Positions 42,199-47,790 of a stretch of DNA of 64,000 nucleotides are shown one piece after another; position 1 is the stretch's first letter; the number at the start of each line of letters is the position of its first letter. Below the pieces are notes generated by a model. It worked only from the letters and a program-made list of their open reading frames with translations, ran no database searches and was not told the DNA's origin. Made by a program: the position numbers and the translations under genes. This DNA is from an uncultured Acidobacteriota bacterium (GTDB lineage Bacteria > Acidobacteriota > Thermoanaerobaculia > Multivoradales > SZUA-115). Location of the stretch: contig CAWDVR010000005.1 in the NCBI GenBank assembly GCA_963805975.1, positions 1 through 64,000 on the forward strand. The letters are read 5' to 3'.

Positions 42199-44148
42199 AT
42201 GCTTCAGTGGACGCGCGACAACCTCAAGCATCTCAAGTGGACTCTCTGGCCGGTGATCCTCGCCTTCGTGGCCGGCTTTGTCGTCATTCCCCAGTTCGAC
42301 AGCGGTGGTGGCGGCGACGATCGGGTGGCGACGATCGGCGACGAGACCATCACCCAGGCCGAGTTCGAGCGCGAGTATCGCAATCTCCAGGATCAGTACC
42401 GGAGCTCGTTGGGCGAGCGCTTCACGCCCGAGCTCGCCCAGCAGTTCCGCCTGCCGCTGCAGGCGATCAACCAGCTCGCGGCCGAGAAGCTGATGGTGGA
42501 AGAGGCGCGGCGCGCGGGCCTCACGGTGACGGATGCCGAGCTCCGCCAGCTCCTCATCGACATGCCGGGACTGCAGGACGAGAGCGGCCGGTTCATCGGC
42601 TCCAGGCGCTACGCGGAGGTGCTCAGGGCGAACGGCTACCCTTCGCCCGCGGCTTTCGAGAGCGGGCTGCGCGAGAACCTGCTCGGCCAGAAGCTGCAAG
42701 CGGCGCTGGCCGCCGGCGTCTACATCCCGGACGCTGCGGTCGAGGCGCGCTATCGGCGGGACGTGGAGAAAGCCCAGATCCGCTACGTAGAGGTCCCCGG
42801 CTCCCGCTTCGCCGCCGATGTGAAGGTCGAGCCCGAGGAGGTCAAGTCCTTCTTCGACGCCCGGCGCGAGGAATACCGCCGCCCCGAGCAGCGCGTGGTC
42901 AGCTATCTGCTCGTCGACGCCAACCGCCTGGGCGCGACGCTCGAGGTCCCACAGTCGGAGATCGCCGACTTCTACGGACAGAACCAGGCCGACTACTCGC
43001 GAGAGGAGCAGGTCCACGCCCGGCACATCCTGATCAAGGTGGACGACAACCGCAGCGACGAGGCGGCGAAGGCCTTCGCCGCGGAGGTGCGCCGGCGGCT
43101 CGAGGGCGGGGCCGATTTCGCGGCCGTGGCCAAGGAGGTGTCCGAGGACCCCGGCTCGAAGCCGCGCGGCGGGGACCTCGGCTACCTGTCCCGCAACGGC
43201 GTGGTCCCGGAGTTCGGCGAGGCCGCCTTCTCCGCCACTCCCAACCAGCTCGTGGGCCCGGTGAAGTCCTCTCTCGGCTACCACCTGCTGGAGGTGCTCG
43301 ACCATCGCCCCGGCGGCCAGCGGCCGCTCGAGGAGGTCTCGAACCAGATCCGCCAGCGATTGCAGAACGAGCGCGCCCAGGCGCAGGCCGAGCAGAAGGC
43401 GGCGGCGCTCGCCGAGCGCATCGGGAAAGAGAAGCTCACCTCCGACGAGCAGTGGAAGGGGCTCACCGAGGGCGCGCCCTACATCACGGTCGAGAAGTCT
43501 CCGGCCTTCGGCCTGCAGGACAACGTGCCCGGCGTCGGTCGCGCGCCGGAGTTCCTGAGCACCGCCTTCGAGCTCGAGAAGGGCGAGGTCTCCGACCCCG
43601 TCCGGCTGCCTCGCGGCTGGGCGATCCTGCGCCTCGACGAGGCTCTCCCGCCTCGCCTTCCCGAGCTGACCGAGGTCGAGACGCAGGTCCGCCAGGCGCT
43701 CAACAAGCAGAAGCAGGACGGTCTCGCTCTCTCCCGCCTGGCGGCGGCGCGCCGGGAGCTCGATGCCGGCCAGAGCCTCGAGCAGGTGGCGAGCGGGCTC
43801 GGCGTCGAGGTCAAGGACAGCGGCGAGTTCGGCCATGGCCAGCCGGTCGCCGGGCTGGGCCCCAACCCCGGGTTGACCGAGGCGGCGCTCGCTCTCTCGC
43901 CCGGACAGACCGGCGGTCCGGTCGCCTCGCGGCTGGGCGCGGTCCTCTTTCAGGTGACCGAGCGCAAGAGCTGGGACCCGCAGGAGTTCGCCCGCGAGAA
44001 GAACTCCACCCGGCGGCAGTTGGAGGGCGAGCAGGCGCAGCGCCTCCTCGCCTCGAGGATCGAGAGCCGCATTCGCGAGGATCTGGACTTCAGCAAGCGG
44101 TTCATCGCCGCCTACGGGGCGCCTCCCGAGCCGGCGCAGAAGCGTTGA
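42199..44148 (+). CDS. SurA/PpiD-like peptidylprolyl isomerase chaperone
   Basis: SurA N-terminal domain; HARHILIK and SEDPGS..RGGDLG parvulin motifs. Confidence 0.92.
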   Translation: MLQWTRDNLKHLKWTLWPVILAFVAGFVVIPQFDSGGGGDDRVATIGDETITQAEFEREYRNLQDQYRSSLGERFTPELAQQFRLPLQAINQLAAEKLMVEEARRAGLTVTDAELRQLLIDMPGLQDESGRFIGSRRYAEVLRANGYPSPAAFESGLRENLLGQKLQAALAAGVYIPDAAVEARYRRDVEKAQIRYVEVPGSRFAADVKVEPEEVKSFFDARREEYRRPEQRVVSYLLVDANRLGATLEVPQSEIADFYGQNQADYSREEQVHARHILIKVDDNRSDEAAKAFAAEVRRRLEGGADFAAVAKEVSEDPGSKPRGGDLGYLSRNGVVPEFGEAAFSATPNQLVGPVKSSLGYHLLEVLDHRPGGQRPLEEVSNQIRQRLQNERAQAQAEQKAAALAERIGKEKLTSDEQWKGLTEGAPYITVEKSPAFGLQDNVPGVGRAPEFLSTAFELEKGEVSDPVRLPRGWAILRLDEALPPRLPELTEVETQVRQALNKQKQDGLALSRLAAARRELDAGQSLEQVASGLGVEVKDSGEFGHGQPVAGLGPNPGLTEAALALSPGQTGGPVASRLGAVLFQVTERKSWDPQEFAREKNSTRRQLEGEQAQRLLASRIESRIREDLDFSKRFIAAYGAPPEPAQKR

Positions 44149-44738
44149 TCGGCTATCTCAAGGGCGTACCGCTCGCGGTGCGGCCGGACTCCGTCCTGCT
44201 CGACGTGGGTGGCGTCGGGTACGCCCTTTCGATTCCCCTCTCGACCTACTACGCCCTGGAGCGCGCGGGGGAAGGGCGGCCCGTGGGGCTCTATGTCCAC
44301 ACCCATCTGCGGGAGGACGAGATCAGCCTGTACGGCTTCTCGACGGAGCTCGAGAAGCTGCTCTTCGAACGGCTGATCGCGGTGTCGGGCGTCGGCCCTC
44401 GGCTCGCCCGCGTGCTCCTCTCCGGCATGCCGCCGGAGGAGGTCATCGCCGCTCTCGCCGCCGGCGACGCGACGCGCCTGACACGCATCCCCGGCGTCGG
44501 CCGCAAGACCGCCGAGCGGCTGGTGCTGGAGCTTGCGGACAAGATTCGGGAGCTGGGCCTCCCTCTACAGGCCCCACCCGCCATGGCGGCCGACGGCGAG
44601 GTGATCTCGGCGCTCGTCAACCTCGGCTACAAGATCGCCCTCGCCGAGAAGGCGGTGGCCGAGGCGCGGCGGCTGGCACCGGACGCCGAGTTCCACCAGA
44701 TCCTGAGAGCGAGCCTGCAGCGGCTGGCTCGCGGCTGA
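44145..44738 (+). CDS. ruvA: Holliday junction branch migration protein RuvA
   Basis: IGYLKG, DVGGVGY, LYGF, VSGVGPR, IPGVGRKTAERL and ALVNLGY; TTG start. Confidence 0.96.
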   Translation: MIGYLKGVPLAVRPDSVLLDVGGVGYALSIPLSTYYALERAGEGRPVGLYVHTHLREDEISLYGFSTELEKLLFERLIAVSGVGPRLARVLLSGMPPEEVIAALAAGDATRLTRIPGVGRKTAERLVLELADKIRELGLPLQAPPAMAADGEVISALVNLGYKIALAEKAVAEARRLAPDAEFHQILRASLQRLARG

Positions 44739-44967
44739 GAGCGCTGCTTTTCCGAGGTCCCCACCTCGGCTGGTCCCGGAGTTACTTTTTCTCGACGGCA
44801 GGTCTTATACTCTTGTGTGCAGACATGGAGATGCCTTCGGAGTCTTCGCGGGTCGACCGGCGCCCAATGACCTGTCCCTGCTCGGTCGAGGCCCCGCACC
44901 TCTGAGGCATCAACGTCGGTGTCGGAACATTTCCGGCTGAACCCGGCTTCCTCATGGAGGGCTGGCC

Positions 44968-45063
44968 ATGCGTCTCCTGCTCTGGTTGCTTTCGCTGCTC
45001 GAAAATCCTCTCACCCCGTTCCGCGCCATCGAGGAGGGCTCCCTCAACGACCCCGATGGTTAG
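44968..45063 (+). CDS. 31-aa peptide MRLLLWLLSLLENPLTPFRAIEEGSLNDPDG (putative signal-peptide precursor)
   Basis: GGAGG at 44956-44960, 7 nt before the ATG; hydrophobic N-terminus, acidic C-terminus and host-like codons. Too short for the ORF track. Confidence 0.65.
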   Translation: MRLLLWLLSLLENPLTPFRAIEEGSLNDPDG

Positions 45064-45132
45064 TGTCGCGCCCTACCCAGGCTCGCGAAATGGCACCTCG
45101 CGAGCGACTCCTGAGGTATAGTCGTGACAGTC

Positions 45133-45414
45133 ATGTCTGGGATCTACGCCGCGCGAGCGCGCGGCAGGAGCGCGACCGAGGGCAAGGCGGAAGGCCCCTT
45201 CGTCGAGTTCCTGCGCACGGTTCAGCCGAAGGCTACTCGGCTGATGGAGAGTTACTGCCTGGCGCCCGAGGCCACGTCCTCGATCTTTCACGACACGCTC
45301 GAAACTCTGGTGTGGAAGTGGGAGACGGTGCGAGATCGCGAGAGCTGGCTGCTGGCGGTCCTGCAACGCAAATGTGAGCTTCTCGCCCGCCCGCCCGGCG
45401 AGGTGCGGCGGTGA
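45133..45414 (+). CDS. Stand-alone sigma-70 region-2-like mini-protein (no region 4)
   Basis: FVEFLRTVQPKATRLMESYCLAPEATSSIFHDTLETLVWKWETVRDRESWLLAVLQRKC resembles ECF sigma region 2; TATAGT upstream; GTGA overlap with the next gene. Confidence 0.6.
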   Translation: MSGIYAARARGRSATEGKAEGPFVEFLRTVQPKATRLMESYCLAPEATSSIFHDTLETLVWKWETVRDRESWLLAVLQRKCELLARPPGEVRR

Positions 45415-46703
45415 GCGGAGATCGATCTCTCCCACCGGAGCCTACACCTTTGGTGCCCGCGCTCCGGGCCCTCCCGGCGCCGCGCTCGACCGCACCTGCC
45501 GACGATCCCGCGGTCGACTACAACGCCGTCTTCGACCGGGTCTTTGCCGAGGCCGTGCGCCACGAGCGCAGCCTGGCTATGGAACGGGTGGAGGCGCTGG
45601 CGCTCGCCACCGAGCTCGAGGGCCAGCCGCCACGGCGGCGGCGCCTCCTGGTACGCAACAGCCGTCGCTACCAGACCTGGTCCATCTGCCAGGGCCTCAT
45701 CGACCGCAGCCACCAGCTCGGCTTCAACGAGCCCCAGGAAGGCCTTGACCTGGCCGAGCTCGCCACCGAGGTGGCCGAGCGGCTCGACGCCAGGCACTAC
45801 GGACCGATCCAGGTCCGGGACATGAAAGCCGCCGCCTGGAGCCAGTACGCCAACGCCCAGCGCGTAGTGTCCGACTTGCGTAAGGCGGACGAGGCGTTCG
45901 GCATCGCGGAGCACTTCCTGGCTGGCGGTACGGGCGACCTCCTGGCGCTCGCCCGCTTCTACGACCTCAAGGCGTCGCTGCGGCGCGCGCAGCGGCGGTT
46001 CGAGGAGAGCGAGGCCCTGCTGGGCTCGGCCATCGACCTCTATCGCCAGCTCCACGATTCCCGCCGCGAGGGCGGCGCGCTGATCAAGCTGGCGGCCGTC
46101 CGCGACCTGCAGGGCCGGCTCGAGAGCGCCATCGAGCTCGTGCAGCAAGGCTCCAGCCTGCTCGACCCGGTGGCCGACCTGCGCCAGATCAACCTGGCGC
46201 AGGCCAACCTCATCAGTCATCTCGCCGATGCCGGCCGCTGCCTCGAGGCCCAGGTCCTGCTGTCGCGCGCACGCCGGGCGCAAGTGGCCGAGGGGGACGC
46301 GATCCCGCTGCTGCGCTTGCGCTGGGTGGAAGGCAAGATCGCCGCCGGACTCGGCCACACCGCGCTCGCCGAGCGTGCCTTCAAGGACGCGCGGCAGGGC
46401 TTCGTCGACAACGGCCTGGGCTACGACGCGGCGCTGGTCTCGCTCGAGCTCGCCGAGCTCTTTGCGCGCGCCGGCCGCGCTGGCGAGATGAAGGTCCTCG
46501 CTCTCGAGATGCTGCCCATCTTCCGCTCCCGCGACGTGCACCGGGAGGCCCTCGCCGCGCTTCTGGTGCTGCGCCAGGCGATCGAGGCCGAGGCCGCCAC
46601 CACGGCGGTGATCGGTGAGGTGCGCACCTTCCTGCGCCAGGCCCGCGACAACCCGCGCCTGCGCTACGAGGGATCGGTATCCACCGTGGGCGCCACCGGT
46701 TGA
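45411..46703 (+). CDS. TPR-like alpha-solenoid protein
   Basis: Repeated amphipathic helix pairs ([38 protein letters not shown]...AE) and C-terminal [15 protein letters not shown]. Confidence 0.85.

Positions 46704-46764: not shown

Positions 46765-47790
<1,026 letters not shown>

Follow-up and report, generated by a model that had tools for sequence, protein, structure and literature searches.

The space between ruvA and ruvB in a 64,000-nt stretch of DNA (hereafter the window; nucleotides 1–64000 of contig 5 of G000, the 96% complete source genome of an uncultured Acidobacteriota bacterium of the class Thermoanaerobaculia) holds a real, conserved, and unusual regulatory cassette of three genes. 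These genes, all on the forward strand, encode a 31-aa peptide (44968..45063), a 93-aa protein that resembles only region 2 of a sigma factor (the sigma-2-only protein; 45133..45414), and a 430-aa cytoplasmic tetratricopeptide repeat (TPR) protein (45411..46703). The original prediction, made from the DNA sequence alone, had taken the cassette for a peptide-signalling unit, and its layout was verified throughout: the three open reading frames (ORFs) with all their coordinates, the GGAGG ribosome-binding site (44956..44960) with a 7-nt spacer to the ATG, and the GTGA by which the TPR ORF overlaps the sigma-2 ORF. The ribosome-binding site is also present in the orthologous loci of two related genomes (G001 and G004), and the sigma-like ORF, ending at 45414, can be read as 93 aa from ATG 45133 or as 96 aa from GTG 45124. 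As judged from sequence comparison, the cassette is a reduced member of a larger family in three ways, lacking the signal peptide of the precursor, the zinc domain of the TPR receptor, and the polymerase-binding motif of the sigma-2 protein. It is probably a new variant of cytoplasmic peptide sensing, wired to sigma factors. In the mechanism that we propose, and to which we give about an even chance of being right, the peptide tail binds the TPR protein, the TPR protein holds or releases the sigma-2 protein as a decoy, and the decoy shifts the balance between zinc-bearing TPR anti-sigma factors and full-length extracytoplasmic function (ECF) sigma factors.

ORFs orthologous to the peptide gene, 31–33 aa long and ending in a DP[DN]G tail, occupy the same position in four other genomes. 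The orthologous peptides are 18–65% identical to the window 31-mer; D, P, and G are kept, and the residue preceding D varies (N, N, R, T, and L). When G000 was compared with G004, six of the last eight codons (the stop codon included) had changed synonymously, one non-synonymously, and one was identical, and the stop codon of the orthologues alternates between TAG and TGA. Among 1000 windows drawn at random from the genome, none contained an ORF with the strict tail. Because the tail recurs in positional orthologues, its codons change synonymously, and random windows lack it, the small ORF is more than a chance reading frame, and these codon patterns indicate that it is under selection. The core G-x-x-x-D-P-[DN]-G, residues 24–31 of the 31-mer (45037..45060), is likely the active part of the peptide. 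G stood at position -4 in 30 of 33 held-out units, and D, P, and G were invariant in 10 short peptides, which had been selected by the core motif itself. D-P-x-G may also resemble the cleavage motifs of RHS proteins. The tail of the 31-mer is acidic. The 31-mer matched no Pfam or NCBIfam family. We also considered a precursor of a ribosomally synthesized and post-translationally modified peptide and rejected it, as no modifying enzyme was found within the cassette or the ruvA/ruvB flanks, the range to which this search was confined, trans-acting enzymes falling outside it.

The precursors of the family fall into two classes. Long precursors (approximately 80–160 aa) combine a Sec-type signal peptide with an amphipathic Trp/Leu helix and carry between one and six G-x-x-x-D-P-x-G cores; short precursors (29–35 aa), among them the window copy, consist of a helix and one core and nothing else. 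By eye, the Trp/Leu helix of the long precursors, which is placed after the signal peptide, is like that of the 31-mer. NCBIfam gave no family for five long precursors, one short orthologue, or one further sigma-2-only protein. A scan of the flanks of TPR homologues for short tail ORFs showed peptide and TPR genes to be tightly linked across Thermoanaerobaculia. The suggestion in the original prediction, that this TPR family and small proteins ending in DPNG or DPDG recur in this class, was borne out both by genome counts and by held-out loci. At 58 loci, a co-oriented D-P-[DN]-G ORF lay upstream of the TPR gene in 19 cases under a strict and in 38 under a loose pattern; the opposite strand gave 0 and 3, respectively, and 1000 random windows gave 0 and 22. 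This tail pattern had been set after many of those loci had been inspected. At 39 held-out loci the counts were 20 strict and 26 loose, with 0 and 0 on the opposite strand. The 58-locus count leaves out L015 (the second half of the frameshifted L014), L016 (a weak match), and L059 (a duplicate of L030). Loci with less than 900 nt upstream were dropped (2/60 in the first scan, 1/40 of the held-out loci, and more, including L118, in a table of 98 loci whose automatic peptide classes include wrong starts, for example at L007 and L128). Two loci (L032 and L037) have the Rap-Phr order, in which the TPR gene comes first and the precursor gene second, with a sigma-2-only gene upstream, and at another (L070) one TPR gene is flanked by two near-identical multi-core precursor genes.

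The 430-aa protein was originally described as TPR-like and devoid of a helix-turn-helix (HTH), and so it proved: it matched TPR_12 (Pfam, E 3.8e-07) and no Pfam HTH family. Its structure model is a confident, continuous, all-helical solenoid (pLDDT, the model's predicted local accuracy score, 92.1) that aligned with LGN at Z 23–24 and with Rap and NprR at Z 21.2–22.6 (root-mean-square deviation, rmsd, 4.6–5.6 over approximately 300 residues), some of the Rap alignments extending into model residues 40–90, where an arrangement like the Rap-type bundle is conceivable. Identity to Rap and NprR over the fold alignment was 9–14%, and no RRNPP chain was among the best 60 of 129 sequence matches. 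The modelled fold shows a TPR protein of the peptide-binding type without showing RRNPP descent. Among homologues, N148, R151, N266, R302, and W305 are conserved at 87–98%; these residues, which may lie on the concave face, would suit an acidic peptide. G000 itself has 14 TPR loci and one weak match. Family matches were found in 35 of 41 genomes, with 15–43 in each of 22 of them, and the wider library yielded 1432 clusters (50% identity) at E <= 1e-30. In a sample of the phylum, where only 14 candidates were scored per genome, 6 of 9 genomes of the same class and 0 of 111 others had matches at E <= 1e-40. The 18 named relatives are all Acidobacteriota, the lower rank, where given, being Thermoanaerobaculia or Holophagales, and the matches in the ESM Atlas were Acidobacteriota TPR clusters only. 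One homologue of 1090 aa (P0073) has two TPR stretches and an HTH-looking N-terminus. At L002 and L010 (G000:C5:623135-632041), two divergent cassettes stand on either side of a tRNA-like end and a remnant resembling an integrase, both recognized by eye, a setting hinting that cassettes move with mobile DNA.

The original prediction had overlooked that a zinc anti-sigma domain is present in most of the family's receptors and has been lost from the window copy. The motif H-x3/4-C-x2-C was present in 105 of 150 homologues, at 33 of 40 held-out loci, and at 7 of the 14 loci of G000. The window TPR protein has neither the motif nor the zinc bundle; according to the model and its alignment to zinc-bearing homologues, it retains the long helix that follows the bundle (residues 37–70, 45519..45620), which we regard as a candidate sigma-2-binding helix. 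When the modelled N-terminus of a paralogue was compared with 48,161 chains, the anti-sigma factor RslA ranked first (Z 5.3, rmsd 2.2, 44 residues). Foldseek placed ChrR first for the same model and listed RslA, DdvA, RsiW, and a SigK-bound anti-sigma factor, all with non-significant E-values. Several loci have the order precursor, full-length ECF, zinc-bearing TPR, and directly upstream of the TPR gene at 98 loci we counted a full-length ECF gene in 17, a sigma-2-only gene in 19, and neither in 62. Zinc-less receptors accompany 10 of 12 short peptides versus 7 of 44 long ones, and six of those ten belong to the clade of the window receptor. This clade (seven rows, support 92, FastTree) has a short peptide and a sigma-2-only gene in every member, and the zinc motif is absent in all six members tested. 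One zinc-bearing TPR paralogue (L014/L015, G000:C2:839204-840302) is split across two frames, through an assembly error or as a pseudogene.

The statement that the 93-aa protein resembles region 2 of an ECF sigma factor alone was confirmed within the genome. The protein aligns with four full-length ECF sigma factors of G000 over their region-2 half (E 3.5e-10 to 9.1e-08), and one of the four, when scanned, matched Sigma70_r2 and Sigma70_r4. It had no Pfam match of its own and no NCBIfam family; Sigma70_r2 was matched by 4 of 25 sigma-2-only members, and a profile of the sigma-2-only proteins gave nothing significant against solved structures (best E 0.27). Its ORF stops approximately 22 residues past a conserved Trp, as do those of the orthologues, and region 4 is absent; 7 of 62 sigma rows were not classifiable and were left out before counting. 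Two features separate these proteins from their full-length relatives. D-x-x-D-x-x-Q occurs in 39 of 40 full-length relatives and in none of 23 sigma-2-only proteins, and [YF]-W is distributed identically (39/40 vs 0/23). The sigma-2-only proteins have a signature of their own, R before E-x-W in 20 of 23, where 39 of 40 full-length relatives have P. In ECF sigma factors the acidic DAED motif, which contacts the beta-prime subunit, is required for core binding (PMC8999054). The ECF subfamily in G000 comprises four full-length ECFs and four sigma-2-only proteins; no sigma-4-only protein of this subfamily was found, a search that would miss an unrelated partner. With its residues for core binding gone and a sigma-4-only partner not found, a decoy is favored over a working or split sigma factor, and the sigma-2 protein is likely a decoy and not by itself a transcriptional output. 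The claim that output runs through the sigma-like partner is weakened accordingly, the D-x-x-D-x-x-Q and Y-W-R residues being missing. In one natural fusion (P0153), the place of the zinc domain is taken by a domain that resembles sigma-2 (E 1.3e-05; probability 55%). Activation by phosphorylation, as in EcfP, was considered and rejected: the window protein has Thr and Ser at the motif, and these are not kept in orthologues. Another protein (P0160) has an N-terminus that resembles sigma-2, by eye only, fused to TPRs. Elsewhere in G000, three full-length ECF genes of the subfamily stand in tandem with no TPR match beside them (L178, G000:C1:1248300-1252700) and the fourth lies at C1:1331693. 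Lone sigma-2-only genes without a peptide or TPR neighbour occur at G000:C5:412446 (L176) and G000:C4:146619 (L177), and similar stand-alone genes are found in G116, G079, and G045.

In all eight genomes of the family (G000–G007), a sigma-2-only gene lies directly after ruvA and/or before ruvB. The peptide and TPR genes are both present in G000, G001, G004, G005, and G007 and both absent from G002, G003, and G006, which retain the sigma-2 gene only at ruvAB. Genomes of other families, too, have sigma-2-only genes that lack a TPR partner. The full cassette precedes ruvB in five of the eight, with ruvA seen upstream in four; the contig of G005 begins after ruvA, and that of G006 ends before ruvB. 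Beyond these five genomes, which represent three genera, two paralogous copies of the cassette are intact.

A two-block motif of ECF-promoter type, TGTC[AC]CG-N16-GCAC[CT], lies approximately 90–100 nt upstream of many precursor genes. In the window, the predicted -35 block (44873..44879) and, 16 nt after it, the predicted -10 block (44896..44900) form a site of 15.3 bits with the window excluded from training. A matrix built from 13 sites scored at least 12 bits in 9 of 26 held-out precursors, compared with 0.18 in shuffles and 0 on the opposite strand. Across G000, nine sites reached 18 bits at the true spacing, whereas none of five shifted spacings gave any; with the threshold at 14 bits, there were 57 sites at the true spacing and 30–52 at shifted ones. 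Exact matches, summed by hand over the 41 genomes classed by TPR match counts, numbered 169 at the true and 31 at a wrong spacing in the 22 high-copy genomes, and 27 and 33 in the 19 low-copy genomes. On these counts, the motif upstream of precursor genes is statistically real. We infer that it is a promoter read by the four full-length ECF sigma factors of the subfamily. The motif heads five of eight scored operons that contain a full-length ECF, some of these being training sites, which fits the autoregulation of ECFs (PMC7826278). One of the nine top sites in G000 was a training site, and seven of the other eight precede genes for an MbtH-like protein, a nonribosomal peptide synthetase (NRPS) module, a pyridoxal phosphate (PLP)-dependent enzyme, a serine hydroxymethyltransferase, a uridine-kinase-family protein, a GT87 glycosyltransferase, and an aminotransferase, suggesting that biosynthetic clusters may belong to the regulon of the motif. 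The sites before the first three of these are at G000:C1:565734 (L166), C2:239068 (L167), and C4:97142 (L168), and the NRPS module behind L167 is of the condensation-adenylation type. A site of 16.8 bits at G000:C2:1192840 precedes a gene for a Cys-rich, apparently secreted small protein.

In the proposed mechanism, the binding of the peptide to the TPR protein, that of the TPR protein to the sigma-2 protein, and the signalling itself are predictions. The DPDG tail of the 31-mer would sit in the groove of the TPR protein, which would hold or release the sigma-2 protein through helix 37–70. The decoy would free full-length ECF sigma factors from zinc-type anti-sigma factors, acting in trans on the seven zinc-bearing paralogues; were it released upon peptide binding, a positive loop would arise. 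The 31-mer more likely acts in the producing cell because it has no signal peptide and a similar helix is also found in exported precursors; it would work inside that cell or at its membrane, providing feedback, and signalling between cells would fall to the long precursors with a signal peptide. The output would include peptide-synthetase genes. In favor of this mechanism we counted the joint presence and absence of peptide and TPR genes, the tail-ORF counts, the tandem cores, and the TPR fold with its conserved residues, and also the zinc motif, the adjacency to ECF genes, the loss of residues from the sigma-2 protein, the P0153 fusion, and the promoter motif. More tentatively, and well short of an even chance, the cassette may be an intracellular amplifier of a Thermoanaerobaculia network of 15–40 receptors per genome, a multi-channel system that acts through anti-sigma factors instead of DNA-binding regulators; an ECF-induced peptide without a signal sequence would make a zinc-less TPR protein let go of the sigma-2-only decoy, which would titrate the remaining anti-sigma factors and turn on a regulon that includes peptide-synthetase genes.

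Several observations weigh against this mechanism and its extension. The eight family genomes are kin and not independent of one another, so that their pattern represents a few events rather than eight tests, and the pairing of TPR and sigma-2 genes is not obligate, the latter occurring without the former in three of the eight. At the 98 loci, moreover, the TPR neighbour of a sigma-2-only gene is zinc-bearing in 11 cases and zinc-less in 8. The modelled fold does not single out RRNPP receptors, as the eukaryotic LGN scores equally or higher, and the window TPR protein deviates at some conserved positions (R141A, R222G, and H265A). The fold resemblance to anti-sigma factors is weak (Foldseek E 0.27 and Z 5.3, with zf-HC2 found in 21 of 96 members at E <= 0.1) and covers only the zinc bundle, which is missing here, the RslA alignment stopping before helix 37–70; for this reason, helix 37–70 as a sigma-binding helix is a guess. 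The promoter motif was first noticed by eye, and a one-block Gibbs sampler run on 38 precursor upstream regions missed it. It is present at two of the six scored loci of the window clade that combine a short peptide with a sigma-2-only gene (the window, 15.3 bits, and G004, a training site, 16.9 bits; the others scored 0.8–4.2), and before none of the four full-length ECF genes of G000; feedback through the motif is therefore not a fixed trait of the cassette.

Among the alternatives, the one that survives best, unlikely as we consider it, retains the exported pre-peptide of the original prediction. The 31-mer would leave the cell by a route independent of a signal peptide, be trimmed, and return as a pheromone, and the cassette itself would be the quorum-sensing unit. 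Short pheromone precursors without a signal peptide are known from streptococci (SHP and ComS), the N-terminal helix of the 31-mer is amphipathic (moment 0.49), two family-5 solute-binding proteins of G000 could serve uptake, and the variable residue before D resembles specificity variants. However, a simple heuristic found neither a positive n-region nor an A-x-A site in the 31-mer, which thus lacks the Sec-type signal peptide of the long precursors of its family. In those precursors a similar Trp/Leu helix follows the signal peptide and so is probably not an export signal in itself, and the cassette contains no exporter or protease gene. Export of the 31-mer is unsupported.

It is also conceivable, although quite improbable, that the ligands of the whole family are cytoplasmic and that export just removes them, the receptors sensing secretion capacity or growth state and the signal-less copy being non-removable. 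The existence of a signal-less class, with at least six changes of state on the receptor tree, agrees with this idea, and re-import over two membranes would presumably be harder than in Bacillota. The tandem cores, up to six in a precursor, and the paralogue-specific cores better suit released signals. Still less can be said for a decaying remnant of an operon of precursor, ECF, and zinc-bearing TPR genes. All three genes are shorter than in the full architecture, and the peptide and TPR genes are missing from three of the eight family genomes, but the cassette is intact in five genomes and two paralogous copies that form one receptor clade, the codons of the peptide tail change synonymously, and the sigma-2-only proteins have their own conserved signature, with at least six changes of state on the tree. 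We regard decay as very unlikely.

We think it just as hard to credit that the small ORF encodes a leader peptide, or one that arrests ribosomes, and so governs downstream translation in cis. Its conserved motif lies right against the stop codon, and next comes a hairpin, an 8-bp inverted repeat without a U tract between the peptide and sigma-2 genes (45081..45105, forward strand), which the consensus scan did not call as a terminator. A leader accords poorly, however, with precursor genes downstream of the TPR gene (L032 and L037), with cores repeated within precursors, and with a separate -10-like block before the sigma-2 gene. This conserved block (45112..45122, forward strand), which ends in a sigma-70-like -10 hexamer and is kept in G000, G001, and G004, may provide the sigma-2 gene with a promoter of its own; a consensus scan of 44700–45450 returned no sigma-70 promoter or terminator. 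Least probable of all is that the sigma-2 protein is one of the two subunits of a split sigma factor, as in Bacillus SigO-RsoA, and therefore a genuine transcriptional output. Split ECFs exist (PMC7826278), and the region-2.3-like segment of the protein has a conserved residue of its own, in the segment that a title cited in PMC7826278 names as the RsoA-SigO contact; but the protein has lost both its acidic motif for core binding and the Y-W-R stretch, and no sigma-4-only protein of the subfamily was found in G000.

Returning to the proposed peptide–TPR–decoy mechanism, its closest counterparts are the RRNPP(A) systems (Rap-Phr, NprR-NprX, PlcR-PapR, Rgg-SHP, and AimR-AimP). Like the family described here, they pair a small peptide gene with a cytoplasmic TPR receptor, have a conserved C-terminal core that is sometimes in tandem, as in some Phr propeptides (PMC11343458), and include many paralogous pairs per genome. 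Their output module is an N-terminal HTH and/or a Rap-type three-helix bundle (PMC9765709), whereas the receptors here have in place of the HTH a zinc anti-sigma N-terminus, which is absent from the window copy. RRNPP(A) propeptides mostly carry a Sec/signal peptidase I (SPI) export signal, whereas the window 31-mer has no signal peptide. Moreover, RRNPP(A) systems belong to Bacillota or their mobile elements, for which cytoplasmic peptide-sensing TPR receptors have been described (PMC9765709, PMC10075063), and the family here belongs to Acidobacteriota. The analogy drawn in the original prediction therefore stands in part: the peptide/TPR linkage, the peptide-binding solenoid fold, and the tie to ECF sigma factors uphold it, but the export signal and the sigma-2 protein as output do not. 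The cassette would operate in the manner of RRNPP signalling but falls outside that group, differing in lineage and in export signal and showing no sequence homology to its receptors among the best 60 of 129 matches.

The family also borrows from zinc anti-sigma factors, DdvA, and PhyR-type mimicry, while matching none of them. With zinc anti-sigma/ECF pairs (ChrR-sigmaE, RslA-SigL, and RsiW-SigW) it shares an H-x3-C-x2-C three-helix bundle, and some members adjoin full-length ECF genes; its sensor domain, in contrast, is a TPR solenoid that is cytoplasmic and has a peptide gene as its partner, and the window TPR protein has lost the zinc bundle. In such class I anti-sigma factors a fourth helix binds sigma region 2.2; in the zinc-bearing homologues of the window TPR protein, the bundle is followed by the counterpart of helix 37–70. 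DdvA of the DdvA-DdvS pair of Myxococcus xanthus likewise joins a zinc anti-sigma domain to TPRs (PMC11506125), and its N-terminal domain appeared in the Foldseek list of the paralogue at E 3.0. Unlike our family, DdvA resides in the membrane, has its TPR-CHAT domain in the periplasm, and is thought to be released by proteolysis, and no peptide gene is reported for it in the accessible part of the paper (PMC11506125); the family here has no CHAT domain, and the window TPR model is a continuous solenoid. In the PhyR-NepR-EcfG system of Alphaproteobacteria, a sigma mimic binds the anti-sigma factor and frees the real sigma factor (PMC4598750), whereas the mimic here comprises only sigma-2 and would be under the control of a TPR protein that binds a peptide. 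SigO-RsoA of Bacillus subtilis has its sigma-2 region on a separate polypeptide, as here, but the protein described here has lost its residues for core binding, and a sigma-4-only partner was not found. A description of the family was not found in the literature searched, in which subscription papers are thinly covered and which excludes the supplement of PMC7826278, a place where the ECF subfamily or its promoter could be listed.

If the proposed mechanism is correct, peptide signalling is wired in a new way in a lineage with two membranes, with output through sigma factors and with sigma-2-only decoys. The mechanism can be tested without culturing the host, as binding and reporter assays require no more than the three short genes, the 8-residue core, and the promoter motif, the last two being defined. 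The motif before MbtH and NRPS genes points to a handle on natural-product clusters, and should the cassette be an amplifier, synthetic core peptides would wake silent biosynthetic clusters in this lineage.

The genes on either side of the cassette, on the same strand, were confirmed by Pfam. ruvA (44145..44738) matched Pfam RuvA_N, HHH_5, and RuvA_C, and ruvB (46765..47790) matched RuvB_N, AAA_lid_4, and RuvB_C. The start codon of ruvA is apparently TTG and overlaps the stop codon of an upstream gene at 44145–44148, labelled by eye as SurA/PpiD-like. The order of the SurA/PpiD-like gene and ruvA is also kept at family loci of other genomes.

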